Positions 40,491-63,562 of a stretch of DNA of 64,000 nucleotides are shown piece by piece. Origin of the DNA: a virus; IMG/VR virus record IMGVR_UViG_3300037089_000505, positions 79,948-143,947 of that record. One strand, 5' to 3'. Positions within the stretch are counted from its first letter, which is position 1; each line of letters opens with the position of its first letter. The notes under the pieces are model-generated. The model searched no databases. It was given only the letters and a program-made list of their open reading frames with translations, and was not told where the DNA came from. The position numbers and the translations under genes were made by a program.

Positions 40491-40529
40491 TTTCGATCAC
40501 AAGATAAATTACCAATGAAAGGCATAGAT

Positions 40530-40589
40530 ATGTATATGAATCAGTCGCTCGCAACATTCCAACAGACCCAAACTACAGATACTGTTTGA
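40530..40589 (+). CDS. leader peptide 1 MYMNQSLATFQQTQTTDTV (alternative in-frame start 40515)
   Basis: GAAAGG 7 nt upstream; Thr/Gln/Asp-rich; directly followed by antiterminator/terminator. Confidence 0.75.
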   Translation: MYMNQSLATFQQTQTTDTV

Positions 40590-40640
40590 ACTTTTGCGGG
40601 GAGTGCGTAATACAGACTTCCCAAAGTGGAAGTCTTTTTT
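40590..40640 (+). promoter_or_regulatory. attenuator 1: alternative antiterminator and intrinsic terminator
   Basis: terminator AGACTTCC-CAAAGT-GGAAGTCT-T5 (40614-40640); competing ACTTT..GGGGAGT (40590-40604) pairs with ACTTCCC-AAAGT (40616-40627). Confidence 0.75.
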
Positions 40641-40848
40641 GTTGAAGGTGGCATATGAGGAGGAAAAAGAAAAGGATTCAGCGTTGGAGACAGAATTCTT
40701 GCGAAGGCAAGGTTGACTTCAAATCTATCGAGACGGCGGAGAAAGCAGCAGCCAGGTTGAATGAAAAGAAGAACAGACCTGGATATCATGAATTAGAAGC
40801 TTACCAATGTTCCTTCTGTAAAGGATGGCATATTGGTAAAAAGTATAC

Positions 40849-40920
40849 GCCGGCGTAGCTCAATGGCAGAGCGGTACCTTTGTAAGGTAAGGGTTGGGGG
40901 TTCAAGTCCCTCCGTCGGCT
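40849..40920 (+). tRNA. tRNA-Thr(TGT)
   Basis: GCCGGCG/CGTCGGC; TACC-TT TGT AA-GGTA; TTCAAGT T-loop. Confidence 0.88.
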
Positions 40921-40927
40921 TAAACAT

Positions 40928-41000
40928 AGAGCCGTAGTGTATCGGTTTAGCACGCGAGACCGTCAATCTCGAAGGGCGGGTTCAACTCCCGTCGGTTCTG
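40928..41000 (+). tRNA. tRNA-Asp(GTC), C33
   Basis: AGAGCCG/CGGTTCT-G; CGAGA-CC GTC AA-TCTCG. Confidence 0.88.
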
Positions 41001-41001
41001 T

Positions 41002-41610
41002 ATGAGAAAATTATTTCTTGTTTTGTTTTTATTCGTAGCTGCTCTTTCATTTGCTAATAAGAGCTGGTATGTAGATCAGAATGGAACTGGCATAGGAAAC
41101 TGTGGACCGGCAACGGTAGCTATGATGATTTCTTATACAGAACACGTTCGCATTCCAGTACAAGTAATTCGGGAAGAGATAGGATATACAAGAGATGATG
41201 GCAGTACAGATCTTGAAGAGTTATCAGGTGTTCTTGAGCGTCATAAAATTCGTTATTCTAAAACAGAAATAAAGACGAAGGTTGATTTGGATGAGCTTTT
41301 GGAAACTCATCACATAGTTTTAGTTGACGTAGATATGAGCTATATCCCTAATAAGAGCAACTATGATAAAGGTCACTACTTGATTCTGTCTAGCTATAGT
41401 GAAGGGACTTATGAGGCTCAAGATCCTCTTAATGGATCTGATGTTCATTACAACGCTGATGCAATATGGTCAGCTATGAAAACGAGAGAAGTACTTGTAA
41501 CTGGTAATGGAAGACTGCCACTAGTAGGTTTTGGATTTATTACCCAAATACTATTAGTCATCGACATTAGTGCTATCGTAGTTCCGAAGAAAATTATTTT
41601 GCCGTGTTAG
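41002..41610 (+). CDS. secreted C39-like cysteine peptidase
   Basis: signal peptide; Q....NCGPATVAM, GHYLIL and QDP. Confidence 0.75.
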   Translation: MRKLFLVLFLFVAALSFANKSWYVDQNGTGIGNCGPATVAMMISYTEHVRIPVQVIREEIGYTRDDGSTDLEELSGVLERHKIRYSKTEIKTKVDLDELLETHHIVLVDVDMSYIPNKSNYDKGHYLILSSYSEGTYEAQDPLNGSDVHYNADAIWSAMKTREVLVTGNGRLPLVGFGFITQILLVIDISAIVVPKKIILPC

Positions 41611-41702
41611 CTCAGTTGGTAGCAGCGTTTCCTTGGAGAATGCTTTTTTAAGAGAGCACTGTCCTAAGGAAAAGGTCCCCAGTTCAATTCTGGGACACGG
41701 CT
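41601..41702 (+). tRNA. tRNA, probably Thr(GGT), with a 28-nt insert in the anticodon loop
   Basis: GCCGTGT/ACACGGC-T acceptor like the other Thr tRNAs; TTTCC/GGAAA stem encloses 35 nt instead of 7. Confidence 0.75.
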
Positions 41703-41893
41703 CTCGTCTCGACACATAGACGCATGGGTAAAACTCGAGTCAAGACCCAAGTATTCTAAAGTCTAATAGAGCAGCTTTCTAGAAAGCTATCGAGTACTTA
41801 ATTAGACATTAGCTGAACGATATCGCATTGCGATAGTAGGCGAAGTATTCAATGGCAAAGCGGTAAAGGTGCGACAGCCGGGAGAGACCGGCT
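41703..41893 (+). ncRNA. candidate structured non-coding RNA
   Basis: successive stems CGTCT/AGACG, TGGGT/ACCCA, GTCTAAT/ATTAGAC, TATCGC/GCGATA and AGCCGG/CCGGCT. Confidence 0.5.
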
Positions 41894-41946
41894 TTATTTG
41901 GAATCATTGCTCGTTGAGCAAAAGTAATATTTATAGAGGAGTTAAA

Positions 41947-43143
41947 ATGAAAAGATTCAAGAATCTGTTCTTGTTTTTGGCTGTTCTTGTATTAGCGTCA
42001 GCTAGTGCTTGGGCGATGCCAGCGGCAGGTAAGACTCTTACCATCGGATTGGTACTGGTCGGACCTTACAATGATCTAGGATGGAGTCAGGCAAATTATG
42101 ATGGCGTTCAATACGTCGTCAAGAATGTTCCTGGAGTTCAGTTCATTTATATTGACAAGGCTAATCCAGCAGACAGGCCGGGAACGACAGTGTCTCAACT
42201 AGCTGAAAGTTTGGTTGCAAAGGGCGCGAAGCTAATTATCTTCAGCTCAGATGATATGGGTGATGAGGCAGTTAAGTTTGCTACAGCGCATCCTGATATT
42301 TTCGTTGTTATGACTTCTGGTAGCCAGGTATGGAATGCTGGAAAAACCTATCAGAACCTACCGAACATGATTAACATCATGGGTCGTATGGAATTTGGCA
42401 AGATGATCGCAGGAGTTGCCGCCGCCATGACGACAAAGACTGGTAAAATTGGTTACCTCGGACCACTTATCAATGATGAAACGAGGCGATTGTGTTCTTC
42501 AGTATATCTTGGAGCCAAGTACGCTTGGACAAATTACTTGAAGAAAGATGCTGCTAAGCTTCAATTCAAGGTAACTTGGATTGGATTCTGGTTTAACATT
42601 CCGGGTATCACTTCAGATCCCTCACAAGTGGCCGATGCATTTTTCAATGATGGTTACGACGTGGTAGTTTCTGGTATTGATACTAGCGAAGTTGTTACAG
42701 AGGCAGCAAAGTTTACGGCTCAAGGCAAGAAAGTTTTCGCAATTCCTTACGATTACTCAAGCGCCTTCGCCGCTTCACCTGAGGTTAATTTGGGCGTTCC
42801 TTATTTTAATTGGGGTCCTGCTTATGTAGTAGCTGCAAAAGCTGCAATGGGTGGTTCTTGGGTTTCCCACTTTGAGTGGAACTCCCCCGACTGGAAGAAT
42901 GTTAACAACCCTGATACATCAGCGGTTGGTTTCAACAAGGGCAAGGCACTTTCACCTAAGGCTTCGGCTGCAGTTGATAAGTTTCTTTCCGAACTTGCAT
43001 CAGGACTTAACCTATGGAAAGGTCCTATGAAGCTTCAAGATGGTAAGACCTACTTGGTCGATGACCAGAAGGCAACAGATCAGCAGATCTGGTATTTGCC
43101 TCAACTCTTGGAAAATATGCAAGGACAGAGCGTTTCGAAGTAG
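41947..43143 (+). CDS. BMP-family ABC transporter substrate-binding protein
   Basis: signal peptide; GPYNDLGWSQA, AG.AAAMTTKTGKIGYLG, WIGFWF and FNWGPAY. Confidence 0.88.
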   Translation: MKRFKNLFLFLAVLVLASASAWAMPAAGKTLTIGLVLVGPYNDLGWSQANYDGVQYVVKNVPGVQFIYIDKANPADRPGTTVSQLAESLVAKGAKLIIFSSDDMGDEAVKFATAHPDIFVVMTSGSQVWNAGKTYQNLPNMINIMGRMEFGKMIAGVAAAMTTKTGKIGYLGPLINDETRRLCSSVYLGAKYAWTNYLKKDAAKLQFKVTWIGFWFNIPGITSDPSQVADAFFNDGYDVVVSGIDTSEVVTEAAKFTAQGKKVFAIPYDYSSAFAASPEVNLGVPYFNWGPAYVVAAKAAMGGSWVSHFEWNSPDWKNVNNPDTSAVGFNKGKALSPKASAAVDKFLSELASGLNLWKGPMKLQDGKTYLVDDQKATDQQIWYLPQLLENMQGQSVSK

Positions 43144-43153
43144 TATTACAATT

Positions 43154-43179
43154 AGAGGGCAAGGCTTCTTGCCCTCTTT
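43154..43179 (+). terminator. hairpin, probable terminator overlapping a promoter start
   Basis: AGAGGGCAAG-GCTT-CTTGCCCTCT-TT. Confidence 0.65.
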
Positions 43180-43182
43180 CAC

Positions 43183-43256
43183 TCGCCCTTGGCCAAGTGG
43201 ATTAAGGCAGAAGACTTTGGATCTTCTATGCGCAGGTTCGAATCCTGCAGGGCGAA
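43183..43256 (+). tRNA. tRNA-Gln(TTG)
   Basis: TCGCCCT/AGGGCGA; GAAGA-CT TTG GA-TCTTC. Confidence 0.92.
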
Positions 43257-43265
43257 TATTTACAC

Positions 43266-43340
43266 TGTCCCGTAGCTTAGCTGGCCGAAAGCGTCTGTCT
43301 CTGGAACAGAAGAGCCTCCGTTCAAATCGGAGCGGGACAA
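43266..43340 (+). tRNA. tRNA-Gln(CTG)
   Basis: TGTCCCG/CGGGACA; TCTGT-CT CTG GA-ACAGA. Confidence 0.92.
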
Positions 43341-43354
43341 AAAGAAAGGGAAAC

Positions 43355-43771
43355 ATGGAACTAATAATTTCAATCGGTCTCCCCGGCTCTGGCAAATCTA
43401 CTTACTATCGCACAGCGCTTGCGAAAAGTCACACACAAATCTCCAAGGATCTAATGAGCGGCTCTCCAACTAGAAAAAATCAGATTCAGATTGACATGAT
43501 TACTCAATCTCTAACTAAAGGATTGAATGCAGTAATCGACAATACTAGTGTCACAGCTGAAGTTCGGAGGCCTTTAATTGAGCTCGGCCACAAACTTGGC
43601 GCAAAGGTAATTGCGTATTACTTTCCGACTTCAGTCAAAGATTGTATTGCTCGCAATGCTCAGCGAACGGGTAGGGCTAAAGTACCAAATGTGGCTATCT
43701 ACACTATGGCAAAGAAGCTTCAAGGGCCAACAAAAGCTGAAGGCTTTGACGACATAATTACGATCAATTGA
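43355..43771 (+). CDS. P-loop polynucleotide kinase-like (AAA_33) protein
   Basis: GLPGSGKST, ISKD, VIDNT....R, C.ARN..R...VP and P...EGFD. Confidence 0.85.
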   Translation: MELIISIGLPGSGKSTYYRTALAKSHTQISKDLMSGSPTRKNQIQIDMITQSLTKGLNAVIDNTSVTAEVRRPLIELGHKLGAKVIAYYFPTSVKDCIARNAQRTGRAKVPNVAIYTMAKKLQGPTKAEGFDDIITIN

Positions 43772-44038
43772 GGCATCTATGAATGAAACTGATCATCCTA
43801 TTTTTCAAAGCTTGACTGATTTTAATTGGTATAAGTCTTCGCTAGACGTTGCCAGTCGTTACCATTTCCGCCACCGTGGAGAGCCTAAGAAATATCCTTG
43901 CAAGCTTCTTCACTCCGAATTTGATTCAGATTCTAACGGACCTGACGGTTATAATCATTCTTTCATTTACTTACAGGAAGTCAAGTGTCCGATGTGTGAA
44001 CACAAAGAGTTTGTGTGGCCACAAATTGAGGACGAAAC

Positions 44039-44569
44039 ATGAACCAAGAAAATACAAAAAAGCTTTTAGATCGATTCAATTTCTTTCAGCCCACTATGCA
44101 TAATCCAAGAAGATTTTGGGGCTTTGAATGCGGAGACGGTTGGTTTGAGTTGATTTGGAAGCTATGTGAAGATTTAGATGAAATGCGAAAGCATTTAATC
44201 ATTATTCCAGAAGATCCATTTCAGGCTCTTCAAGTCAAAGAAAAATTCGGCGGATTAAGATTTTACATCAATGGGTGTAGCAATGACATGTTCCAGCGAA
44301 TTCTCAAAGCTGAACATGATTCTTTTTCAATTTGTGAAAATTGCGGAAAGGCAGGCGAGCTCAGACCGGGCGGATGGGTTAAAACTCTTTGTGATGAATG
44401 CTGCGAAGCTCGCTATGTAGAAGATTGTAGCATGTGTCATTTGTGCCATGATCCAAACGAAGAAACTATTCAAGCTATTCAAGAAGCTCGTGGAAGCGAA
44501 AATATTTCTCCCGAGCCATTAGAGCCTATTGAAAAACTACTTGAGGACTATGATAAGAGGAATCCATGA
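44039..44569 (+). CDS. conserved phage hypothetical protein
   Basis: ECGDGWFELI, QVKEKFGGLRFY, CENCG and W..TLCDEC. Confidence 0.7.
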   Translation: MNQENTKKLLDRFNFFQPTMHNPRRFWGFECGDGWFELIWKLCEDLDEMRKHLIIIPEDPFQALQVKEKFGGLRFYINGCSNDMFQRILKAEHDSFSICENCGKAGELRPGGWVKTLCDECCEARYVEDCSMCHLCHDPNEETIQAIQEARGSENISPEPLEPIEKLLEDYDKRNP

Positions 44570-44935
44570 TCTTAGCGTTTAAACTAACAATGCCTGGTTC
44601 GCCAAGTTGGAATGGAAAATGGAGCGGCGAAGGTCGACTCTATGCACGAACTCGAACAGTCACAAAGAAAAAAGGCGAAGAGGTTTTGGGCGGATCTGAC
44701 AAGAAATTCTTCGGCTATCGCTGGTCTGATGGTTGGTTTGCTAGTGTTGAAGTTGAACAAGTGAACAGCAACGAAAAAAGAAAACTCACAAAAGATTCAG
44801 TTGGATTTGCTAGCTATGATTGGATGATAGATTCAATTCTAACTCACGGCAAAATCTTAGCCTCTTAGCTTTTTCAAAAACGTACCAAACATTGGCAGTA
44901 AAGACGCAAAGATAAAAGCGAAGGAGGGACCGCTA

Positions 44936-45148
44936 ATGAGTGATTTCAATGTTGAAGATGATCTAGTATATAAGGTGTCCGATGGCGACCCAGATACTGA
45001 CGACAGCGATGATTTGGATCCATCCGATTTTCCTGATTTCGACATTCCAGATGATTTTGATCCCGATGATGACGATGCTTTCGATGACGACAACGTCCTT
45101 GATGATTTTGAGGATGACGATATCGACATCGATATAGACGAGCAGTAA
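44936..45148 (+). CDS. hyper-acidic small protein
   Basis: 35 of 70 residues are D/E; SD AAGGAGG; own AAGATAA motif and terminator. Confidence 0.75.
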   Translation: MSDFNVEDDLVYKVSDGDPDTDDSDDLDPSDFPDFDIPDDFDPDDDDAFDDDNVLDDFEDDDIDIDIDEQ

Positions 45149-45162
45149 AAACAAAACAATTG

Positions 45163-45186
45163 GCCAGCTTTGTCGCTGGCTTTTTT
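45163..45186 (+). terminator. intrinsic terminator
   Basis: GCCAGC-TTTGTC-GCTGGC-T6. Confidence 0.8.
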
Positions 45187-46550
45187 GTGTGTAGTAAGAA
45201 AGATAATTCTATGGCAAGAGCAGTAAAGAGATTAGTCGTCGGTCAACAATATATAGATAAATCGCCAAGTGTACCAAAGGCCTTTTTCTTAATAAAAGTT
45301 AAATATATTGATAAACGTACTCGCCGACCAGCTATAAGTCGATTAGCTAAAATAACTCGTAAAGGTGTCACTTCAGACATATACCCTTTGAGTGGCGGCT
45401 ATGAGTTTCAAGATGACGCTCATACCAAACGCACATACAACAAACATGAGTTCATCAAATTCATTTACAAAAAAATAGATACGGAGTTTTAATATGAAGA
45501 AGCTATTATTAACCTTAGCCTTATTATTAGTAGCAGCAATAAGTTTTGCTACTTCAACTGTTACCGACTGGAGCAAATATTGGACTAATAGACTCACTAC
45601 TGTCGGCGTAGTAGCTGGCGTAACTAAAGTCAATGCGTTATATTTAGTGAACTTTGTAGGAACACCAACAAATAACGAACTTAGAATAATAGTAACCTGT
45701 AGTGATCCTACTGTTGTGTTTACTAAGTATGATAATATAGCTATATCAGCCGCTATCATAAAGAATTTGAGTGCCATCAAAACATATAATGGATTGACAA
45801 CAATATACATAGTCACTTTTCCTTACACGAGAGCTATGTTTGTCAAAGATTTATTAGCACCACCGAAGAAACAAAATTTAATGAGTATAACGGTATTAAA
45901 AGATGAAACCCAAAAAAAGAAATAATACTCGAAAACCTCGAACGACACTACCAGCAGCACCAGTCATTGTTCAACTTCAACAACCGCCAGCTCTCATTGA
46001 AGAAAAAAAGTCTCCTCTTAGAAATTTATTTGAAAAGTGGATTGCTCCTCTTATCTTAGCAATTATTGTGGCAGCTGTTAGCTACACATTTTTAGATCGA
46101 CTAACTAAAGTTGAAAATATTCTGGCCGATTTACAAAAAACTGTAACTGAATTAGATACTAGTTATTCCAAAGACTCTGAAACTAAAGGGTCGATGGCTG
46201 CTGACGTTAAGCAATTAGATAGATGTTGGCATCTTGAAGGACGAAGATGATTTATTACCACAAGAGCGATAAAGAATGGTATGAAACATGGGCGTGGCCG
46301 AAAGCTGACGTTCAAATTTATGTAGAAACACTAGGCCACGTGAGTGCTTCATTTAAGCGTTCTCTTATTATTGATGAATGGAATTATGAATATATAGTTT
46401 CTCACTTTGATTATGAAGAAGAACGTTTCGTTCAAGCCGCTGATCATCAATTAGAAACACTTGTTAAAATGATCTTCAATCCAAAATGGACTATCGAAGA
46501 TCAAAGACCCGCAAAATAGCATATTTTATTTCATTAAGGAAGTAATATAA

Positions 46551-47459
46551 ATGTCGACTAATATACCTGTAATTAACGTCAAAGGAAAAACTTTACCTGA
46601 AGCTTATGAAAAAGCAATCATGGCTCTTTATGATAATGGTTGCCGTATGAAGACTCAATATGATAATCCAGATTCGCCACCTTCAATAGATGCTACTGCC
46701 AACATCACAATTGAAGATCCCGAGGCTGAGCCCATGATTTATAAATTCTTTCCGGGCGGAATTGAAGACCTTCATGAATACGTGATTGAACTTCAGGGAG
46801 CTAAAAATCATTGGGTCAGGGCTATGGACGATCCAAATGACAAACGATGGGAATATACTTACAATCAAAGGTTGACTAAGTGGGGCGAGTGGAAAGAAAA
46901 GTCGGGCCAGATGACGCCCACATATACTGCAAAAGCATTTGAACAAAATGGTCCAATTAATCAAATCAAGTTAGCTGTCAAGAAATTGATCGAAACGCCA
47001 CATTCGCGAAGAGTTCAAGCAATCACTTGGATGCCTTTTATAGATAATGAAGTAAGTGATCCGCCATGTCTACAGTCGATGTGGTTTAGAATGCTCAAAG
47101 AAGATGATGTTTATTACCTTAACTCTAATATTCGATTTAGAAGTAATGACGCGTGGGGAGCTGCATTTCTAAACATGTTTGGTCTCACTATGTTCATTCG
47201 AAAGGAAGTAGCCAATCCAATTGCAGTTGGTCTAAACGCAACTGTAAAACTAGGAAGAATCAATTGGCAAGCTGATAGTTTTCACATATATGGAAAAGAC
47301 ATTAAAGGCGTAGAGCAAAAATTGCTTCCAAGACTCTCCCCCTATAGTTTTAATGATAGAGTTTGGAACTTTAATGATCCTATAGTGCAAGATATCTGGA
47401 AAGACGCTAAAGATGAAGTTTTGAACAAAATAAAAGAATACGACAAAACTCACCAATGA
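46551..47459 (+). CDS. thyA: thymidylate synthase (ThyA family)
   Basis: YTY..R, SRR, PPCLQ, FRSND....A..N (Asn at the dUMP-specificity position) and SFHIY. Confidence 0.85.
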   Translation: MSTNIPVINVKGKTLPEAYEKAIMALYDNGCRMKTQYDNPDSPPSIDATANITIEDPEAEPMIYKFFPGGIEDLHEYVIELQGAKNHWVRAMDDPNDKRWEYTYNQRLTKWGEWKEKSGQMTPTYTAKAFEQNGPINQIKLAVKKLIETPHSRRVQAITWMPFIDNEVSDPPCLQSMWFRMLKEDDVYYLNSNIRFRSNDAWGAAFLNMFGLTMFIRKEVANPIAVGLNATVKLGRINWQADSFHIYGKDIKGVEQKLLPRLSPYSFNDRVWNFNDPIVQDIWKDAKDEVLNKIKEYDKTHQ

Positions 47460-48109: not shown

Positions 48110-48462
48110 ACGACTTCTTAGGGGTCTAGGTACTTGTGAGAGCTGTAAGTTCGGTATTAAAATAGAGTTTTGGACTAACATAAAATGGCCAGCTCATTCA
48201 AACCCAGGTAATTGGAAAATAGAAAAAGACGGTTATTCTTGTCTTAAGAAAGAGAGCCCAGAAATTGATAGAATCTTTTGTGAGACAGAGTGGGAAAAAC
48301 ACGACATTGAACCTTCAAAAGAATTTATGGGAGCATCTTCAAATGAGAGGTATGCAATAAGAACTACGTTTAATCGCAATCTTTTAAACCAAAGAAGGTT
48401 CTGTAAAAGAATTGATGACCTTAGGTATAGTGCTCACGATTATCTTAAATGGAAAGAAGAAA

Positions 48463-48783
48463 ATGACAATTAATGATTTTCTATTTGAAGTAAAAAATGC
48501 ACTTAATAAGTTAAACGACGAAGATAAAGACTACATAAAGTCTACTAAAGATGGCGGCGAATTACACTTCAGTCTTGGAATGTGGCTTCGAAATAATTGG
48601 AACTTATGGCGTGGTGGCCCAATGGTAGATTTCTTTAAAGAGCATGGAATTTGGCATGCCGACGACATGAGCGCAATTATACTTTGTTCCTATACGCGAA
48701 TGCTTAAGAACGAAGATGTAAAATTTGAGGAACAAGTCCAATTCTATAAAGACTATTGGGCTAAAAATAAGGTACAAGAATAA
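48463..48783 (+). CDS. DUF6794-like protein
   Basis: HFSLGMWLRNNW.LW...GI.HADDMS.IIL. Confidence 0.6.
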   Translation: MTINDFLFEVKNALNKLNDEDKDYIKSTKDGGELHFSLGMWLRNNWNLWRGGPMVDFFKEHGIWHADDMSAIILCSYTRMLKNEDVKFEEQVQFYKDYWAKNKVQE

Positions 48784-50544
48784 ATGACTCTACAAGAAGC
48801 AGAAAGATTTGTCGGCAAAGAAGTCAACTATATGAATTTGACTGGCGTCTTACAAAGAGTAAGCGAATTAAATAACACCCAGATGATTCTTGGTTATACT
48901 GATAATGGCATTGTAATCAACATAGTTCTTTATAGGTGCAAAGATGAAAAGGGTGATTGGGTAGACATCGAACAACTACCAAAGGAAGCATAATGGACTT
49001 TAATAAATTTCCCGTAAGCAAAGAACCATTTACGAAAACATTTACTGATGAGCAAAAAATAGATTGGCCAGAAAATTTGAGTGCTCGATTAAAGAGTTGG
49101 ATGATTCTTCTTATGCAGTCAAAAGCTGATGAACTAGGCATCACTGAAGATAATTTAGACTTCATGTATATGTTTAAGCTCGAAGATAATTACGGCGTCA
49201 TTGCACGTTGGAGAAAGACACCAGACAGACCAATTACAGTCAAGATGCCATTTGATTTGATCAAGACGGCTTATAGTTGGAAATTGACAATAGAAGAATA
49301 TTTTTCGCCAGTCTAATAACTCTATTCACTACCATGTTTTCCGCCGCCGAATATAATGTCTATTAATTTAAGCTTAGCGTAGCGTGGAATTTTGCTTGAG
49401 GAATTTATAAATTTTACAGCAGGGTTGTTGCCAAGGCTATCTACGTCGTGCCCGCCGCCACTAAAACCACCATCTGCATAATAAGCAACAAAATAATAGC
49501 CAAAGTCTTTTGTATCTATACCATAGCCCGGACTTTGGATGCCATTATCGGTTTGCCATCCATAAATAAAGAGTCTCATTTTAATTATCTTTGCATATAT
49601 AATCCTGTTATGACTCCTATTGAAAATGAAGTTTATGTAATAGATGTGTTGAAAGCAGCTAAACTATTGGGGAAAGAAGGAACGCCTAAAGTGGCTCAAC
49701 TATTTTTCCTCTACAAAGATTTTAAAGATGGCGATTTCGTTTTCAAGGAGAAAGAGGCAGATAAAAAGATATATGAAGTTAGAGTAACACCTGATCAACT
49801 TCAAAAACTCATTAAACTTAAAGCAATATCCAAAGCAGAAAAAGGACCAGATAGAACGAAAACACTTCTATCACTAATGTAACAAAGAAAAGGAGAAAGA
49901 CAATGATAACGATTCCAGAATTGATCAAGAAAGACAGAGAGGTTAAGAGGACCCCAATCGGCAAGATCGCAATCCGCGATTTGGTTGGTAACAAGAAAAG
50001 GGTTTTCGGTGGTGGCAAAATTACAATCGAGTCACTAATTCGCAAAGAAGGCCGTGAGCCAGGCGGTGAACCATACGGTTATAAGATCTAGCCTGATGGT
50101 AATTGTGGTCGCTTCTCTCAAGATAACTAAGAAGCGACCACAATAGAGAGGACACTAATGACACAGGATATGTATAATTTACTTAAGCAGATAGACGAAG
50201 AGACCAAGCCCACTGGCAAAAAGAAATTGAACGAGGCTAAAGGCGGCGATCCTAGAAAAATAGCAAAGAAGATTTTTATAGAATTAATGGATCCCGATAT
50301 TGTCGAGGGCGGAATGGAAAACATGGAAGACAATCTAGACGATGTGATGGTTGGAAGCGATCCAAATAGTCCAGAAAGCTCAGCGCTTCGAAAAGAAGTT
50401 AAGAAAGCCATAATGGACTATATTAAACAGACCAAAGCTTTTATAAAAACTTTGAAATAATTTCTAACTTATCCGCATAAGTAATAAGATAAAACAAACA
50501 CAAGTTTCGAAGTAGAGTTATACTTCAAACTGAAGAAGGAGCAA

Positions 50545-50622
50545 ATGACAAAACTTTCTTGGCCGATCAGACACCCCATATACCCAGTAGCAGCCTTTAA
50601 TTATGAAGGAGAAGGTGTGTAG
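50545..50622 (+). CDS. leader peptide 2 MTKLSWPIRHPIYPVAAFNYEGEGV
   Basis: SD AAGGAG at 50536-50541; promoter TTCGAA-N7-TATACT at 50506-50524; stop codon is part of the antiterminator. Confidence 0.8.
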   Translation: MTKLSWPIRHPIYPVAAFNYEGEGV

Positions 50623-50689
50623 CAGGCGCGGCTGACTTTGTCACTTGGAAAGCCCCCTGCTAGGTTCAAACCTGGTAGAGGGCTTTTTT
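50620..50689 (+). promoter_or_regulatory. attenuator 2: alternative antiterminator and intrinsic terminator
   Basis: terminator AAGCCC-C-CTGCTAGG-TTCAAA-CCTGGTAG-A-GGGCTT-T4; competing TAGCAGG..GGCT (50620-50633) pairs with AGCC-C-CCTGCTA (50651-50662). Confidence 0.8.
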
Positions 50690-50893
50690 ATTGCCCGGAA
50701 ATCGGGGAGAAGTTAAGGCCTGGTCAATCAATGAGAATGACCTGAGAGCCGCTTTATTGACAAACAGTGAACTTAGGCCAGAGGCACGGTAAAACGGAGT
50801 CGTTACCTAATTCACTCATATCGTATTCCTAAAGGGAATACGGCTAGACAATTAGTAATTAATCAGGGGCTCAGTGCACTAGACTGGGTCCCT
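50690..50893 (+). ncRNA. candidate structured non-coding RNA
   Basis: stems CCCG/CGGG, GTCAAT/ATTGAC, GTGAA..TTAGG/CCTAA.TTCAC, CGTATTCC/GGAATACG and GGGGCTCAGT/ACTGGGTCCC. Confidence 0.5.
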
Positions 50894-50899
50894 TCTATT

Positions 50900-50971
50900 C
50901 AGGGTGTGGCCTAGTGGTAAGGCGCGACGTTCGGGACGTCGACATCGGTGGTCCGAATCCACTCACCCTGA
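50900..50971 (+). tRNA. tRNA-Pro(CGG)
   Basis: CAGGGTG/CACCCTG; CGACG-TT CGG GA-CGTCG; T-loop TCCGAAT. Confidence 0.9.
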
Positions 50972-50975
50972 CTTT

Positions 50976-51050
50976 CGGGATGTAGACCAGTTGGTAGGTC
51001 GCCTGCGTTGGAAGCAGGACGTCGCGGCGGTCCGAATCCGCCCATCCCGA
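50976..51050 (+). tRNA. tRNA-Pro(TGG), atypical loop (G32, A37)
   Basis: CGGGATG/CATCCCG; CCTGC-GT TGG AA-GCAGG; T-loop TCCGAAT. Confidence 0.8.
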
Positions 51051-51104
51051 AATCGAGACTCAAGCTTTCGACTCGAACCCGCAAGATAATTTTAGGAGTC
51101 GAAA

Positions 51105-51698: not shown

Positions 51699-51783
51699 GG
51701 GAGAGCGGCGAAGTTGGAGAGTCGCGGGAGTCCGTAAAATTCTTGCCGTTCGGCTGAGTCGGGTTCGAATCCCACCTCTCCCA
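51699..51783 (+). tRNA. tRNA-Tyr(GTA), C33
   Basis: GGGAGAG/CTCTCCC-A; GGAGT-CC GTA AA-ATTCT; variable arm GCCG-TT-CGGC. Confidence 0.85.
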
Positions 51784-51791
51784 TATTTCAT

Positions 51792-55138: not shown

Positions 55139-55140
55139 CA

Positions 55141-56664: not shown

Positions 56665-57415
56665 GCATAGTTCTTAATATGACATACAAGATCAAGTTGA
56701 TGAAACGCTTTAACATCAGTGAAGGCGATATTGAAAATCCTTTTCTTTGGCTTTCCCTTGAAGAGGAATTCAACTTCGTTCCGTTTCATGATCTTGAACT
56801 TACATGGGGCAACTTAGTGATAGAGTTGACGTAGTATCTTACGATCTAAAGTGTGATTTATTTACTGTCACACTACGCCCAGATACAATTACATATATGA
56901 CTCCTCTCGAGCAAAGAATCAAGCCTTATACACTTAGAGGTTGGAAAAAGATATGACGCACCAAGAAGAAATAGAATCCACCGAAAGAGCCAAAAGGTGG
57001 CTTCTGGGCCGTCTCAAGAAAATCGACAAACCAGTTTCCCTCATGAAGCTAGAACAAAATGGTCTACCAGAAGATGTTGAGTCGACTACCCTTCACAGAT
57101 GCTTCTGGTATCTCTTGGAAGATAGACTCATTAAGTTGACTGATGAGAATTTAGTCTACATCACTGAAAAAGGAAAACGTCAAACTCCAGATGAAGAAGA
57201 TGTCATGGGCTATGCGGAGCTTGCAAAATGTCCACCTGGGAAAAAGAAAGCTAGAGATTATGCGATCCACGGCCTCATGACAGACGGGGCTCATCATAAG
57301 CAATGGATCCTTGAGCAAATCCTTATTGCTCTTGGCTATGATTTAGAAGAAATTCACGAACAATTACATAATGTAGATTACGATTGGGAGCCGGGCATCC
57401 CGCCGTAAAATATTT

Positions 57416-57541
57416 GGGAGTGTAGCTTAGAGTGCATAGTAAGGGCGCTACAGCATTGATCACACTACTGTAGAAGAGCTACTATGACGGCAGAGCGGTC
57501 TCTAACCGGGGCGAACGCTGGTTCGAATCCAGCCACTTCCG
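57416..57541 (+). ncRNA. tRNA-like RNA with a 56-nt D-loop insert and a non-canonical anticodon arm
   Basis: GGGAGTG/CACTTCC-G acceptor (G3.U70); GCTGG-TTCGAAT-CCAGC; GCTT/GAGC D-stem; insert stems CATAGTA/TACTATG and CTACAG/CTGTAG. Confidence 0.7.
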
Positions 57542-57638
57542 CGATCTTAACAGGAGGTAGAGTAATGCCACCGCCTAGTTGAAATTTTTATTGTTATGTG
57601 AACTAATTATGATTTAAGCCGAAATGATAGTAGGTGAG

Positions 57639-57678
57639 ACCTTGTCCCATACCTTTTTATGGGACAAGGTTTTATTTT
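57639..57678 (+). terminator. hairpin, probable terminator
   Basis: ACCTTGTCCCATA/TATGGGACAAGGT followed by a U-rich tract. Confidence 0.65.
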
Positions 57679-57832
57679 CAGGAGAACAAAATGCTTATTG
57701 GGGCTTGTAATTGCGAATCTTGTAATGCTTATTATGAGATGCAAAAAAGACTATATGAGAATGAAAAGAAAAATGAAGCCATAAGGCTTTCTCTTCAAAA
57801 AAAGAAAAAACTTTCAGCTCGGAAAAAGAAAC

Positions 57833-58306
57833 ATGACAATACGTAGCACAGTTTTTCCAAGTGATATAGAGAAGGTCAGAGCAATTCTTCAATCGACAAA
57901 CTTCTTTCGGCCAGACGAAATCAAAATAGCAGAAGAGCTCGTAGAAGACGCAGAGAAATACTCACAGTCTGGGTATCATTTTTTCTTCGCCGAAGAAGAC
58001 AAAGAGATGATAGGGTTTACCTGCTATGGTCCTATTGCTTGCACGCTTAGTAGCTTTGATCTTTTTTGGATAGCAGTATCTAGCTCTTCTCAAAACAAGG
58101 GCGTTGGCAAACAATTACTTAAGATCACTGAAGACGCTATTAAAGAAGCATCCAAAGGAACTCGAGTATATATTGAAACTTCAATGAAGGAACTTTACGA
58201 ATCGACAAGAAGTTTCTATGTTAAACAAGGCTATAGAACAGTATCAGTCATATACGATTTCTATGCACCGGGCGACGACAAAGTCACTTACGAAAAAATC
58301 CTTTAA
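57833..58306 (+). CDS. GNAT family N-acetyltransferase
   Basis: FDLFWIAV...QNKGVGKQLL, IETS...Y..TR.FY...GY and DFYAPGDDK. Confidence 0.9.
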   Translation: MTIRSTVFPSDIEKVRAILQSTNFFRPDEIKIAEELVEDAEKYSQSGYHFFFAEEDKEMIGFTCYGPIACTLSSFDLFWIAVSSSSQNKGVGKQLLKITEDAIKEASKGTRVYIETSMKELYESTRSFYVKQGYRTVSVIYDFYAPGDDKVTYEKIL

Positions 58307-58312
58307 TCACAT

Positions 58313-58385
58313 GGTGGATATGGCCTATCGGTTGGGCGCCAGACTGTGGATCTGGTCCAGGCGGGTTCAACTCCCGCTATCCACC
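58313..58385 (+). tRNA. tRNA-His(GTG) with genomically encoded G-1
   Basis: G-GTGGATA/TATCCAC-C; CCAGA-CT GTG GA-TCTGG. Confidence 0.92.
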
Positions 58386-58445
58386 CAAATTATTCTACTA
58401 CTCTTGGGAACTGCATTTTTACTCTGAACTAAGAAAGATAATTTT

Positions 58446-59249
58446 ATGAAAAAAGTAAAATACATTTGCGATGGATGCGGTGTAGAAAAAGAAACTCAAA
58501 TAGGGCATCTCAAAGAAAACGAAAAAAGACATAATGGGAAAATATATTGTATTTCTTGTTCAGCCAAACTTAGCGCTATAGAAAAACATAAGAAGCTTAA
58601 TAAACATCCCCGACTAAAAAATAAATGGAAAAATTCGATAAAGAAAGCTTCGCATAAACGAAAGTCGTTTGCAATCTGTGAAAAATGTGGAAGAAAATTA
58701 TCTTCAAATCAAAAAAATCAACACTTCGTAACATGTGATGGTAATCCAATTCCTAAGAAAAAGAGACACGAAAAACTAAACGGCAAAACAGTTTGGAATA
58801 AAGGGCTTACTTGCGAAACAGATGAAAGAGTTTTAAAAGGAACTATAAATGCTAAGGCTGCGTGGCGGAAAGCTTATGAAAATGGAACGTTCATACCATA
58901 CAGAGCCAAAAACAATTCATTCTTTCGAGGTAAATGTGGTTGGCATAAAACTTGGAATGGTAAAGACGTATTCTATCGAAGTTTATTGGAAAAGAATTAT
59001 TACATAGTCCTTGATAATCAGAAAGTTGATTATGATGTTGAAAATCTTAGAATCAAATACTTTCATCCTAAGCTTAATAGAATTCGATTTGCTATTCCAG
59101 ATATTTATATTCCGTCTACTAATACTATAGTAGAAATAAAACATAAAAATACATTAGACGTAGATATAATGAAGATTAAGAAAATAGCATATATAAACGA
59201 GGGATACAACTTTAAACTTATTTTAGAAGGTAAAGAAATACCTTTTTAA
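58446..59249 (+). CDS. PD-(D/E)xK (TnsA-like) homing-type endonuclease
   Basis: CxxC fingers, WNKGLT.ETD.R, YRSLLE and IPDIYIP..N.IVEIK. Confidence 0.8.
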   Translation: MKKVKYICDGCGVEKETQIGHLKENEKRHNGKIYCISCSAKLSAIEKHKKLNKHPRLKNKWKNSIKKASHKRKSFAICEKCGRKLSSNQKNQHFVTCDGNPIPKKKRHEKLNGKTVWNKGLTCETDERVLKGTINAKAAWRKAYENGTFIPYRAKNNSFFRGKCGWHKTWNGKDVFYRSLLEKNYYIVLDNQKVDYDVENLRIKYFHPKLNRIRFAIPDIYIPSTNTIVEIKHKNTLDVDIMKIKKIAYINEGYNFKLILEGKEIPF

Positions 59250-59256
59250 AACACAT

Positions 59257-59328
59257 TCCTTCTTGGTGAAATAGGCATCACAGTAGACTGTTAATCTATT
59301 ATTCCCAGTTCGAGTCTGGGGGAAGGAG
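59257..59328 (+). tRNA. tRNA-Asn(GTT)
   Basis: TCCTTCT/GGAAGGA-G; GTAGA-CT GTT AA-TCTAT. Confidence 0.9.
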
Positions 59329-59332
59329 CTAA

Positions 59333-59790
59333 GGCTCTATAAGTAGGCGACCCAACGCTACATAAAGAGTTGTTAATTCTCGTGTATTAATTAGATAAGT
59401 AAAGGTAGAGCCACTTACAGATATGAGGAGGCTAACTATGTTAGGCTACTACTTCATATCATTGTAGTGGCCTTACAAATTATGGCGTATACTACAATGA
59501 TTGTGGCGTATGTCGTAGTTGCAAGACACTACAGATAAGGCGCCTGAGCCTGGGAAGTTCAGGCTCTTTATCTAACTGACGGAGATGGGTTTCTCCGCCC
59601 GATATGGCGAAGGCAGTTCGAGTCTGCCTCTGGTTAAACTGGGTTCGAGGCCCAGCGTCAGTTATATCGTTGAGTGCCTAATGATGACTCTGAATCTACA
59701 TTATATCGCCGAAAGGACTTTAAATAGCCACAGCTTAATTCTGTTGGTTTTGCAAGTAGGTGGCCTCAACATTTTCACATACTTATCTCT
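59333..59790 (+). ncRNA. candidate large structured RNA including a double-T-arm module (59573-59664)
   Basis: ~460 nt without a credible ORF, many stems; TAACTGACG/CGTCAGTTA closes a 5-way junction with two GTTCGAG loops. Confidence 0.6.
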
Positions 59791-59796
59791 AGTAAT

Positions 59797-59868
59797 GCGG
59801 TATTGGCCGAACGGTAAGGTGGTAGACCTCCAATCTACTCTTCGTGGGTTCAACTCCCACATACCGCT
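59797..59868 (+). tRNA. tRNA-Gly(TCC), C33
   Basis: GCGGTAT/ATACCGC-T; GTAGA-CC TCC AA-TCTAC. Confidence 0.9.
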
Positions 59869-60393
59869 TGAGTTATTAGACTTTGGAACCAGGCTCATAA
59901 CCTGGGCTGAAAGGTCCGCTATCCCGAGAGGGGGTCTATTTAATTAGAGACAATCGGTGCGACTCCGATAGGTAAGTAAGTGAGCCAAAGTCTAGTAACT
60001 TTTCTTTATGCCTCTAAGCTAACTATATGGAGGCAACACATGACAGAGAACTTAGAAGTATTTTTAGTTTTGAAAGACGGGACGACTATTAAGATTAGTG
60101 GCGAGGCTTCTGTTCTCGTCGTCGAAGAAAATGGAAAGCCTTTATCTACAATAGAAGAATGGTTTAAGAATGCTAACCCTGGCGATATGCGAATTGAAAA
60201 AGACGCTAAGGTAGCACTGAAGAAACTATGAAAGACAATCTAACCATCTTTATACGCTTAAAAGATGGAACAGACATCATGTTTAAGGGCGAAACACAAA
60301 TCGTTTTAGGTAAAGAAAATGACGGTAGTTTACTTAAAGCAGAATTTTAATTTATGGCAATGATGAGTTATCAGTTTCTTTACATCATATTGA

Positions 60394-60992
60394 TTAAACT
60401 ACATCAATCCAATGATTGAAGAGCTCGCCATCTAAGTAAGCAGTTACTCTAAATTTGTAATCTATTGGGAAGCTACCTACAGTAGCACAAAAACCAGTTA
60501 TATGAATTAGATCATCTATAGTTACCCATACTCTTTTGTCAACTTTCTTGTCGAGGTAATTGCTCAATTTATTGGCAAGTTCAACACTTTTAAGCTCGCC
60601 ACCAGCACCAGGCCTAGTATCGAAAATAGTCAACATCAATTTATGTTTATCAGTTATTTTTGAAACGACTTCTTTGAGTATGTTCATCCTACGCGCTCAT
60701 CAAATATGTTACCTTGGAAGTCAATCATTACTTGAAAATCTTTGTCACCATCATCGCCCCAAGTTCCGGTGACGGCCATGTAATCATCCTGTATCTCAAA
60801 GAAGAAATCATTAGGCACATCTATTTCATAGCCTTTAGATCTGAAGAATATTTTAAGCTTCTTGGAAAGTGAAGTGCTTACTAGATCATCATCTTCTATA
60901 TAATCATTTGAGCCAAAAATGATTTTGATGAATTTTCGCTTTTTAGTTTCATCAAGTTCGTTAAGTCTTAAATCTGTGAAGGTTATTCTCAT
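60394..60992 (-). CDS. two minus-strand hypothetical proteins (60684-60992, 60394-60687)
   Basis: overlapping ORFs after AAGATAA-N5-ATG; FIKIIF and LMLTIF motifs. Confidence 0.65.
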
Positions 60993-61033
60993 CTAAGTTA
61001 TCTTTCGAGATAGACTTAGTATCAACTAAACAT

Positions 61034-61119
61034 TGTGGTATAGCTCAGCCTGGTCAGAGCGGCCGCCTGTTAAGCGGAAGGCCGAAAGGTTCACGGGGGT
61101 TCGAATCCCTCTACCACAG
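61034..61119 (+). tRNA. tRNA-Asn(GTT) with a long variable arm
   Basis: TGTGGTA/TACCACA-G; CCGC-CT GTT AA-GCGG; variable region AGGCCGAAAGGTTCAC. Confidence 0.82.
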
Positions 61120-61138
61120 CGAAGAAGGAGCTTTTGTT

Positions 61139-61786
61139 ATGATTGAGTATCCATCAATAATCAATAGTTCAAAAGCTCCACGTAAGCCAATGATAGCTTT
61201 TGAAAAAATCGATGGCAGCAATATCCGCATTAAATGGACACACAAAAGGGGCTTTGACCTTTTTGGTAGCCGGCAACAGTTGCTTGACTCTAGTCATCCT
61301 AGTCTGGGCGGAGTAGTCCAGATCTTCAACGAGCGCTACAAAGATGCTCTTGAGGAAACTTTCAGACATGAGTATGGGAAAGAGAATGAGATCATTGTCT
61401 TCGGCGAATACTTTGGACCCAGCTCTTTCGCCGGAATACATAGCGATCCAATTTCAGCAATGAATTTCTATCTGTTTGATATCCTTTTTGTAAAAAAGAG
61501 CTACACAGAATTTCTTTTGCCACAAGATCTCGTCAAGATCTTCCCCAAATTCGAAAGATTTGGGATGCCTGTACCAAGAGTTGTCTATGAGGGGAACCTC
61601 ACTGATGATTTTATCAGACGGGTCCGCGAAAATGAATTCAATTTGAATGAGGGCGTCGTCTGCAAAGGCACTCAACGTCTTGGATCTTTCCGTGGCAAAG
61701 TCTGGATGTGCAAAATCAAAACGAACGCCTATCTTCAACGTCTCAAAACTAGATTCCAGGAGGACTGGAACAAGTATTACGAATAG
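61139..61786 (+). CDS. RNA ligase (Rnl2-like nucleotidyltransferase domain)
   Basis: YPSI, EKIDGSN, FGEYFG, F.LFDI, EGVVCK and KIKT. Confidence 0.85.
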   Translation: MIEYPSIINSSKAPRKPMIAFEKIDGSNIRIKWTHKRGFDLFGSRQQLLDSSHPSLGGVVQIFNERYKDALEETFRHEYGKENEIIVFGEYFGPSSFAGIHSDPISAMNFYLFDILFVKKSYTEFLLPQDLVKIFPKFERFGMPVPRVVYEGNLTDDFIRRVRENEFNLNEGVVCKGTQRLGSFRGKVWMCKIKTNAYLQRLKTRFQEDWNKYYE

Positions 61787-62800
61787 CATAATTGATCTTA
61801 TGCCCAAGTTCATAGTTGAATTAGAATTAGATGGATACACAGATAAAGAAGAAATGACGAAAGCTTGCAAAATCTTTATAGAAGATCAGCTTAACTTTTC
61901 TGCTTCATCCGTTAAGGTTGAACGATTTGAATTAGACCACTGTGCAAAATGCGGGAGAGTAATGGACTTGGTTCTTACTTGTCCATTATGCGGTGAGCAC
62001 ATGCCAGACCTAAAGAAACGAAAAAAACACAAGCAACAAGATACTGCCACTAGTTTTTGTCCGAAGTGCTGTCGTTATTTTACTCCTCAAGGATACAAGA
62101 CACACGCAAAAACTTGTAAAGCAATTCGTCCTAGAACAGCAGCAGAAATCGATGGCATACCCGATTGTTTTGGATAAGAAAATGAAACTTAGAATTGGAA
62201 CTAATAACAATTTTTATTGGGTAGAGCAAAGACGCTGGTATGGTAGCTGGAAGCTTTGTCATGTTTATCCAGGACGTGATCTATTTGAATCAGGCCAACG
62301 TTGGCCTAATATCCGTTTTTACGAAACTTCTAGAAGCAAAGATCATTTTGAGTCTCATGAAGCAGCATTAAAATACTCAGAAGTATGGTGGCTGACTTTT
62401 TCTTTTGCAGCCCAGAAACTTCGAAGAATAGAAAACATGAAAAGGGGCAATAAGATAAGCCGTCTCAATTACGAAACGTTTTCTACACCCTTTTTCAGAA
62501 AACAAATAACTATCGACAATTTGAAGGAGAAAGCAAATGGACATTTTTGAGGCAGCAAAACTTCTTGATCAGCAGATCAATCCAGCTGGTTGCGACAAGA
62601 GATACGTAATTGGCATTGGCGATGGTGAACTCTTCATCTATTACCATGACCATAGATCGGCTTTCTTAAAAGAGACAACTGAGATCGAAGGTATCCCAGT
62701 TCGGCACAAATACGCTGGAAGAATGATGGGATAGATAGATTTGAAGATTTGAACCCCAGACGAAAGATAAATACATTATCTGATATGGGGGTTCAAATCT

Positions 62801-63361
62801 ATGATTTGCGAAAATTGCAGCAAAGATTTCTCTGAAGATTGGCGAATAGGTAAAAAGAGAGGACTATTACGGTTCTGCTCTTCACGATGTGCAAAGCGTC
62901 GAAAACAAACTGATGCGATTAGAGAGGCAAAAAGTAAAGCTAGCAAAGCTGCTTGGAAAAGAGGTGTCTATAAAAATCAATACAATCACACTTTTTCAAA
63001 AGCAGACAGAAAAAAGGGCATTGATACTTGTATAGAAAAAGCTAAAACAAGAAACGCAGAACTATTAGCCACTCATCAATATGAAAAAATGAGCAATGAG
63101 GTTAGAAGACGATTTATCCTCGACGAAGTTAATCATGCCTGTGAGTCATGTCATAATTCAGAGTGGCTTGGAAAACCAATATGGTTAGAAATACATCACA
63201 AGGATGATGATAATACGAACAATAAACGCGACAATCTTTTAGTTCTTTGTCCAAATTGTCATTCAGCAATAGATGAGAAATATAGGTTTAGAGGGCGAAG
63301 TAGAAAAAAGACCGAAAGTAGCTCAGTTTGGCTTAGAGCATCTGCCTTATCGGAAGCATAG
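62801..63361 (+). CDS. HNH homing endonuclease
   Basis: FCS..C, CESC...W...I.LEIHHKD....NN..DNL..LCPNCHS; 3' end runs into tRNA-Ile. Confidence 0.88.
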   Translation: MICENCSKDFSEDWRIGKKRGLLRFCSSRCAKRRKQTDAIREAKSKASKAAWKRGVYKNQYNHTFSKADRKKGIDTCIEKAKTRNAELLATHQYEKMSNEVRRRFILDEVNHACESCHNSEWLGKPIWLEIHHKDDDNTNNKRDNLLVLCPNCHSAIDEKYRFRGRSRKKTESSSVWLRASALSEA

Positions 63362-63414
63362 GTTGAGTGCTTCAGATAAGCAGGGGGTCGGTGGTTCAAA
63401 TCCACCCTTTCGGA
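63312..63414 (+). tRNA. tRNA-Ile (TAT or GAT) with a 27-nt insert in the anticodon loop
   Basis: CCGAAAG/CTTTCGG-A; TCTGC/GCAGG encloses 34 nt: CT TAT...GAT AA. Confidence 0.78.
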
Positions 63415-63417
63415 TAC

Positions 63418-63488
63418 CTTCGAGTGGTTTAACGGTAGAACACTTTTTTCACACGAAAGACGTGGCAGTTCAACTCTGTCCTCGAAGA
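63418..63488 (+). tRNA. tRNA-Val(CAC)
   Basis: CTTCGAG/CTCGAAG-A; CTTTT-TT CAC AC-GAAAG. Confidence 0.85.
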
Positions 63489-63491
63489 AGG

Positions 63492-63562
63492 CCCCAAATA
63501 ATTTAACGGAAGAATATCTGTTCGACATACAGGAGGAAGTAGTTCAACTCTACTTTTGGGGA
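63492..63562 (+). tRNA. tRNA-Val(GAC), C33
   Basis: CCCCAAA/TTTGGGG-A; TCTGT-TC GAC AT-ACAGG; AGTAG-TTCAACT-CTACT. Confidence 0.8.

Follow-up and report, generated by a model that had tools for sequence, protein, structure and literature searches.

Putative ribosome-dependent transcription attenuators ahead of tRNA genes in an uncultured peat jumbo phage

Phage transfer RNA (tRNA) genes are increasingly viewed as tools against codon mismatch and against tRNA-cutting host defences, and to our knowledge it is essentially unknown how phages time the expression of these genes. The question is raised by the final 64 kb of a 143,947-bp IMG/VR virus record (IMGVR_UViG_3300037089_000505), which stems from a peat metagenome and has an estimated completeness of 63%. 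In this 64-kb stretch, hereafter referred to as the window, two elements designated leader 1 and leader 2 each combine a promoter motif, a short open reading frame (ORF) and an intrinsic terminator upstream of tRNA genes. Could such elements control the transcription of the tRNA genes behind them, and would a ribosome be the sensor? Our favoured reading, which we rate at a probability of about 0.5, is that both elements are ribosome-dependent (leader-peptide) transcription attenuators heading tRNA-containing units of an uncultured peat jumbo phage. Regulated termination is suggested by the anatomy of the elements, the conservation of this anatomy and a co-varying alternative hairpin. The ribosome is the proposed effector because of a ribosome-binding site, a stop codon that lies within the antiterminator strand and a model in which ribosome positions were masked. 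From these sequence-based and modelled features, we infer translation of the ORFs, stalling and read-through.

In the near-identical strains (L002-L012), both leaders showed 100% identity and were hence uninformative, and diverged loci were reached through homologs of flanking proteins. The relatives obtained for leader 2 were L013, L015/L016 and L017, in which the flanking protein is 90%, 53% and 49% identical, respectively. Those obtained for leader 1 were L022, L021 and L023, the latter lying within the 250-kb relative G001. One further locus (L038) was too short to reach the leader.

Anatomy and conservation of the two leaders

Leader 2 and the genes behind it comprise the following features, with all positions given in the window:

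50504..50524, + strand, promoter motif and -10-like hexamer, invariant in L013, L015, L016 and L017
50545..50622, + strand, short ORF of 25 codons with a strong ribosome-binding site at 50537-50542
50620..50662, + strand, predicted antiterminator in which 50620-50634, beginning with the stop codon, pairs with ~50650-50662 in the terminator 5′ arm
50648..50692, + strand, predicted intrinsic terminator and T run, with a two-part stem at 50648-50686 (~-24 kcal/mol)
50715..50899, + strand, structured non-coding RNA between the terminator and tRNA-Pro, abutting the latter
50900..51051, + strand, tRNA-Pro(CGG) and tRNA-Pro(UGG), the first tRNAs behind leader 2

The ribosome-binding site is near-ideal and lies 5 nt before the ATG, which itself is located ~14 nt past the predicted transcript start. 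In L013, L015 and L017, a block extending from ~14 nt before the promoter motif to the base past the stop codon shows 98.5-100% identity. For comparison, identity in these loci amounts to 88-96% for tRNA-Pro(UGG), 74-85% for the upstream gene and 49-97% for the terminator region, while the spacer is rich in insertions and deletions. At the nucleotide level, the leader-2 block is thus more conserved than the adjacent tRNA genes. It also remained intact in L017, where two genes are inserted upstream. The ORF itself retains 76-78 of its 78 nt in the four relatives, and the only changes are one synonymous Glu codon and one Pro-to-Leu replacement (L017).

The peptide sequence is invariant in three of the four relatives and the ORF has its own promoter, ribosome-binding site and terminator. 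This would also suit a 25-residue peptide with a function of its own or a nascent arrest peptide responsive to some small molecule or factor, with the RNA structure serving mRNA stability and with no sensing of tRNA. We regard this explanation as very unlikely, since a peptide alone does not explain the frozen synonymous sites and since the co-varying antiterminator implies regulated termination.

Such co-variation is most apparent in L013. Here, the whole stretch past the leader-2 stop codon is replaced, while a terminator of the same design is kept, and the new terminator arm again pairs with the 15 nt that start at the stop codon. The pairing energies between the post-stop segment and the arm were -18.9 and -18.8 kcal/mol for the cognate combinations of the window and L013, versus -13.7 and -12.7 kcal/mol for the cross combinations. 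In our view, this preference for cognate over cross pairing is the best single piece of evidence for selection on the alternative hairpin. It also bears on the view that the elements represent ordinary transcription punctuation, in which a tiny gene or spurious ORF has its own promoter and terminator, the tRNAs are expressed via leaky read-through or unrecognised promoters, and both the pairing and the codon matches are coincidental. Small ORFs are indeed common near terminators. Nevertheless, coincidence would account poorly for a leader-2 block that exceeds neighbouring tRNA genes in conservation and survives an upstream gene insertion, or for a post-stop segment that co-varies with its own terminator arm, and we consider punctuation unlikely.

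The features of leader 1 and the genes behind it are as follows:

40490..40510, + strand, variant of the promoter motif, with the same motif-to--10 spacing as the copies at 16504, 17011, 43132 and 50504
40515..40589, + strand, short ORF of 24 codons with further in-frame ATGs at 40530 and 40536
40557..40590, + strand, conserved internal hairpin, in which 40557-40565 pairs with 40582-40590
40591..40626, + strand, predicted alternative (antiterminator) pairing of 40591-40604 with 40616-40626
40614..40641, + strand, predicted intrinsic terminator and T run, with an 8-bp stem at 40614-40635
40655..40858, + strand, gene for a 67-residue zinc-ribbon-like protein matching PHROG families of unknown function
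40849..41001, + strand, tRNA-Thr(UGU) and tRNA-Asp(GUC), the first tRNAs behind leader 1

The zinc-ribbon-like gene begins only 14 nt past the leader-1 T run and its 3′ end overlaps tRNA-Thr by 10 nt (40849-40858), an overlap that is kept at ~1586-1595 in L021 and ~350-359 in L022. A promoter would not fit into the short gap that separates the leader-1 terminator from this gene. The open frame is kept in L022 with one synonymous change and in L021 as 17 codons, which equals the length of the window ORF from 40536. Together with the four leader-2 relatives, this bore out the expectation that homologs would keep an open frame. Within the internal hairpin, the stop codon lies in the 3′ arm, and both the stop codon and a 16-nt loop are conserved between the window and L021, while two pairs are altered on both sides and two on one side. 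In the L021 terminator, four pairs are altered on both sides, and the terminators of the two leaders are overall conserved and display compensatory changes. The antiterminator duplex of leader 1 has an energy of -12.5 kcal/mol (shuffle p 0.019).

The promoter motif consists of 12 nt followed, after 2-4 nt, by a -10-like hexamer. Full or near-full copies are present at 16504, 17011, 43132 and 50504, as well as at genome position 5039, and a variant is found at 40490. Since the copies at 16504 and 17011 precede ordinary genes, with the -10 ending 6 nt before the ATG, the motif suggests a phage-specific promoter class that gives leaderless messages. A sigma-70-type -35 box repeated before the tRNAs was also looked for, and no such pattern was found. 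In leader 1, the -10-like hexamer ends 4-5 nt ahead of the first ATG (40515), and the ORF either has a weak ribosome-binding site ahead of 40530 or may start leaderless at 40515, similar to the genes at 16504 and 17011, which could explain the missing site. Of the arrangement originally predicted for both leaders, namely a promoter, a Shine-Dalgarno sequence, a mini-ORF and a terminator switch, we could thus retrace the motif, ORFs, terminators and pairing, whereas the Shine-Dalgarno sequence of leader 1 is weak or absent. Likewise, the antiterminator 5′ strand was proposed to start at the stop codon in both leaders. It does so at the first base of the stop codon in leader 2, but 2 nt after it in leader 1.

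Alternative pairing, ribosome position and codon content

Pairing of the post-stop segment with the terminator 5′ arm was compared with 2000 shuffles of the post-stop segment in eight variants, which represent about five independent sequence types. In all eight variants, this pairing exceeded that of the shuffles, with p-values of 0.012-0.049. As a control, the same test was applied to 39 other strong terminators of both phages. This yielded a flat distribution with a median p of 0.37. Only four of the 39 controls reached p <=0.05, and two of these were overlapping calls of the G001 leader-1 homolog.

The possible influence of a ribosome was assessed with a thermodynamic mask model, in which the nascent RNA was folded to the end of the terminator 5′ arm and the ribosome footprint was masked codon by codon. 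For leader 2, a 13-bp antiterminator was preferred in the ribosome-free RNA as well as for A-site positions at codons 1-22, and only A-site positions at codons 23-26 abolished it. The same behaviour was seen for L013. Since the leader-2 antiterminator is blocked only at the end of the ORF, termination would need a ribosome at that position when the terminator is made. For leader 1 of the window, the model without a ribosome gave 21 pairs between the ORF and the post-stop segment, and the antiterminator was absent. A ribosome on codons 3-18 resulted in 7-12 antiterminator pairs, and a ribosome on codons 19-23 in none.

In the mechanism that we propose for leader 2, transcription would start at ~50531 from the phage-specific promoter, and a ribosome would load on the strong site and read the 25 codons. 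The first 15 nt from the stop codon onward would be able to pair with the terminator 5′ arm, and this pairing would be preferred in the nascent RNA unless a ribosome occupied the last four codons or the stop codon. Brisk translation that keeps pace with the polymerase would lead to termination, and slow, stalled or absent translation would lead to read-through into the structured RNA and the tRNA-Pro pair. Leader 1 would follow the classical scheme. In the absence of a ribosome, the ORF would pair with the post-stop segment and the terminator would form, while a ribosome stalled on codons 3-18 would free the post-stop segment for the terminator arm.

What might be sensed is suggested by the codons. 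In leader 1, Thr, Gln and Asp account for 10 of the 16 codons after the third ATG, compared to a proteome frequency of 0.149 (binomial p 1.8e-5). This enrichment had a nucleotide-shuffle p of <1e-4, and the other two frames contained two matches each. By decoding score, the next four tRNAs ranked top among 13 sliding windows and beat every non-overlapping four-tRNA window of the record. The L021 homolog contains six Thr, Gln or Asp codons out of 16 (p 0.023). In G001, the gene homologous to the 67-codon gene is preceded by a 10-codon ORF, in which five of nine codons specify Asp or Glu (binomial p 0.003, nucleotide-shuffle p 0.0007). The tRNAs that follow are Asp, Glu, Glu and Glu, representing the unique best of 62 two-tRNA windows. 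Both the leader-1 enrichment and the joint shift of codons and tRNAs in this relative speak against mere punctuation.

The hairpin loop of leader 1 encodes the peptide end Gln-Thr-Thr-Asp-Thr, so that conservation of this part of the codon run coincides with conservation of an RNA loop. We consider it plausible that the leader-1 family senses a shortage of the matching tRNAs. For leader 2, such sensing is unsupported, and this leader looks more like a sensor of general translation speed than a tRNA-specific one. A more ambitious view, which we hold only tentatively, is that jumbo phages possess homeostatic circuits, where a translated leader would gauge the supply of particular aminoacyl-tRNAs and open a terminator before replacement tRNA genes, with a codon set that co-evolves (Thr/Gln/Asp here, Asp/Glu in the 250-kb relative). 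Bolder still is the variant in which the conserved, codon-bearing hairpin loop of leader 1 would contact tRNA anticodons directly.

Evidence against attenuation and alternative explanations

A substantial set of observations, brought together in this section, weighs against the attenuation reading or narrows its reach. To begin with, the shuffle results are sensitive to the choice of boundary, since an automatically set boundary gave a p of 0.106 for leader 2, and the pairing between ORF and post-stop segment in the window was not significant versus shuffles (p 0.28 and 0.12). Moreover, the co-variation rests on few events, since there are only four or five independent sequence types. The alternative pairing of L021 and G001 is located at a greater distance from the stop codon, and the model shows it at any ribosome position. 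Even in leader 1 of the window, the mask model places five Thr, Gln or Asp codons so near the stop codon that a stalled ribosome masks the antiterminator. As an extended hairpin, the leader-1 alternative fold still reaches to within 2 nt of the T run and, accordingly, its anti-termination effect is uncertain. Antiterminator and terminator had been proposed to be mutually exclusive in both leaders. While the preference for cognate pairing upholds this notion for leader 2, the case is weaker for leader 1, where the fold abuts the T run.

The codon content is a further point of concern. In leader 2, which lacks a run of any one codon, Pro, Tyr and Phe represent six of 24 codons (p 0.087), and five of 13 tRNA windows decode as many. 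The proposed match between leader codons and downstream tRNAs, and the permutation test suggested for it, thus came out in favour of leader 1 and at chance level for leader 2. An earlier count of 16 out of 19 leader-2 codons with matching tRNAs carries no weight, as G001 carries 63 tRNAs that cover all amino acids, along with its own transfer-messenger RNA (tmRNA). The present phage probably has tRNAs for most amino acids, like its relative, and broad codon matches therefore mean little. In addition, L021 swaps Thr and Gln codons on the 5′ arm of the leader-1 hairpin for other residues while the pairing is preserved. Co-variation of codons and tRNAs among relatives, which had been anticipated, was hence observed once, as the Asp/Glu shift in G001, and is offset by the partial loss of the Thr/Gln run in L021 and by the Pro-to-Leu change in L017. 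The latter change converts a predicted C-G pair to a U-G wobble, and the synonymous sites of leader 2 are almost invariant. This conservation pattern fits an RNA-level constraint at least as well as a peptide-level one.

These latter findings lend weight to the view that the elements are riboregulators that work independently of the ribosome, or else structured small RNAs that stand alone, where an invariant 5′ sensor binds a protein, RNA or tRNA, a variable 3′ part serves as expression platform, and the frames are incidental or secondary. An invariant 5′ domain joined to a variable terminator/antiterminator platform resembles the anatomy of riboswitches. Synonymous sites are conserved like other sites, the Pro-to-Leu change in L017 keeps its pair, and the compensatory changes in the leader-1 hairpin alter the peptide while the 16-nt loop is conserved. 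Furthermore, in both leader-2 types the minimum-energy folds pair the start-codon region with the segment just before the terminator, giving for leader 2 a rod closed at its ends like those of stable small RNAs, and ribosome position does not gate the alternative pairing of L021 and G001 in the model. On the other hand, no Rfam family was matched, the T-box included, and a near-ideal ribosome-binding site with a start codon, as present in leader 2, is unlikely in an untranslated RNA. The stop codon is the first antiterminator element in both leader-2 types and, in the model, only a ribosome at the end of the ORF blocks the antiterminator. Lastly, the frame-specific codon enrichment of leader 1 is unexplained by base composition. 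Taking both sides together, we judge a riboregulator improbable, and it retains some weight because of the nearly frozen synonymous sites and the amino-acid changes that preserve pairing.

Attenuation by the two leaders also has a limited reach along the DNA. The window contains at least 16 tRNA genes at 39139-63562, every one on the + strand, in more than 10 small groups with protein genes between them. Strong terminators inside the tRNA region at 45162 and 57638 have no leader, and one pair of tRNA genes directly follows a copy of the promoter motif:

43132..43340, + strand, full copy of the promoter motif, then directly tRNA-Gln(UUG) and tRNA-Gln(CUG), a leader-independent unit

The tRNA-Gln pair therefore has its own predicted promoter. 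Given this internal promoter and two strong terminators (45162 and 57638), the data do not support control of the 23-kb stretch (40492-63562) as a whole by two leaders. The original prediction had spoken of two tRNA clusters or arrays, a description contradicted by the many small groups as well as by these signals. Its caveat that distal tRNAs may escape leader control was well founded, as the promoter at 43132 belongs to the same class and both terminators are strong. A promoter may also lie within the 207-nt non-coding spacer that separates tRNA-Pro from the leader-2 terminator. No convincing consensus promoter was found in this spacer, where the consensus need not be of the host's type.

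Likewise, only two strong terminators are located <=400 nt upstream of a tRNA in G001. With 63 tRNAs and two such terminators, the leader-type trait appears to be local rather than a general design. The strongest terminator of this kind, at 97444, is preceded by a 24-codon ORF, and this candidate was rejected because the ORF has no good ribosome-binding site and no enrichment. There is no leader before the tRNA-Pro(CGG) of G001.

For ordinary punctuation, the terminators that have no leader, the separate promoter of the tRNA-Gln pair and the chance-level codon match of leader 2 are all favourable, as are single shuffle p-values of only 0.01-0.05 that depend on the boundary. The small sample and the boundary-sensitive statistics keep this explanation in play. 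As for the idea that the leaders sense a shortage of the tRNAs they control, the codon matches of leader 1 and G001 speak for it. Leader 2, L021, the ungated pairing in G001 and L021, and the separate promoter of the tRNA-Gln pair speak against it.

Genomic setting and relation to known systems

Besides the tRNA genes, the window encodes a tmRNA at 32421-32773, ~6 kb before the first tRNA (Rfam score of 128 bits, 12-residue tag). The genes between the tRNA groups include those for HNH and GIY-YIG endonucleases, a thymidylate synthase, a radical SAM enzyme, a Bmp-type lipoprotein and an AAA_33 kinase. The kinase gene (43397-43771) lies just past the tRNA-Gln pair. The N-terminal part of a T4 Rnl1-type RNA ligase (17038-17616) is interrupted by an intein and driven by the recurrent promoter motif. 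Together, the ligase and the kinase resemble a tRNA repair kit. Three tRNA-like sequences were missed by ARAGORN (63312-63414, 57416-57541 and 51699-51788). Two of these are Rfam tRNA matches of 103 and 126 nt with long inserts, and the third showed BLAST similarity to tRNA-Tyr of Streptomyces and Bacillus phages.

The structured block between the leader-2 terminator and tRNA-Pro (~185 nt) is 84-97% identical in the four relatives. Its consensus fold contains four hairpins (-57 kcal/mol) with compensatory changes in the first hairpin. This RNA matched no Rfam family and may be released by 5′ processing of the tRNA. At the position of tRNA-Pro(CGG), L013 (~833-905) and L017 (9239-9312) carry a different, non-homologous tRNA-like sequence, which ARAGORN calls as Pro(CGG) in L017 and does not call in L013. 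The zinc-ribbon-like gene is kept as a 67-codon gene in G001, where ARAGORN calls no tRNA-Thr after it, and it is found among replication genes without tRNAs in L018-L020. The G001 tRNAs (e.g. 193117-193367 and 209805-210079; L025-L037) include two with CUA anticodons of the amber suppressor type and one with a four-base anticodon. The CUA tRNAs prompted us to consider stop-codon reassignment, an idea that was dropped as TAG ends many long ORFs in both genomes.

Further searches for relatives gave no matches. This applied to scans of viral contigs with the two flanking proteins singly, with an alignment of the 100-residue protein and with DNA patterns for the tRNA-Pro arm, the leader-2 core and the leader-1 core. 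It equally applied to scans of metagenome contigs, for which a leader-1 pattern and a codon-degenerate version of the leader-2 pattern were used, and to an alignment scan of genome contigs. A phage database contained no relative of either region besides tRNA-like matches, and three peat metatranscriptome runs yielded only short unrelated pieces. A permissive Rfam scan of 30000-64000 (E-values up to 0.1) returned only tRNA and tmRNA families, and the T-box was not matched. A full-text literature search retrieved no paper on attenuation or a leader peptide before phage tRNA genes.

The closest known kind of system is the leader-peptide attenuator of the trp, his, thr and leu operons and of pheM-pheST in enterobacteria. 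As in these attenuators, a promoter-proximal short ORF and a terminator precede the genes to be regulated, an alternative hairpin uses the terminator 5′ arm and, in the model, the position of the ribosome sets the choice. The leader-2 energies, ~-18 kcal/mol for the alternative hairpin and ~-24 kcal/mol for the terminator, are comparable to those of the attenuators of amino-acid operons. Unlike in these operons and pheST, the attenuators here would act in a phage and on tRNA genes, accompanied by a small protein gene or a structured RNA. Leader 2 differs from trp in that it has no codon run, reads through by default in the model and does not terminate without translation. Leader 1 differs from the amino-acid operons in that it is possibly translated from a leaderless transcript. 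Like the T-box (RF00230), the leaders would couple the status of tRNA to a terminator/antiterminator choice upstream of translation-related genes, and codons for Gln, Thr and Asp lie in the conserved hairpin loop of leader 1. The leaders differ from the T-box in that they gave no Rfam match, neither Stem I nor a T-box bulge could be made out, and they contain a translatable ORF. In phage T4, the tRNA cluster contains two small stable RNAs, and Pnk and Rnl1 form a tRNA repair pair. The window phage is similar in that tRNA genes are interleaved with a conserved structured RNA of unknown role and in that an Rnl1-type RNA ligase and an AAA_33 kinase gene are present. We know of no leader-peptide attenuator in T4.

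If true, a translation-sensing terminator before tRNA genes would represent a simple feedback, in which tRNAs are made when decoding slows. Classical attenuation would then also operate in viruses and on a class of genes new to this type of regulation. A circuit that reads particular tRNAs would, if true, be the first attenuation control of tRNA genes and would give the phage an inherent means to respond to starvation or host anticodon nucleases. Even with another sensor, the leader-2 block would be an important regulatory RNA, given that it is more conserved than the neighbouring tRNA genes and carries a co-varying switch.

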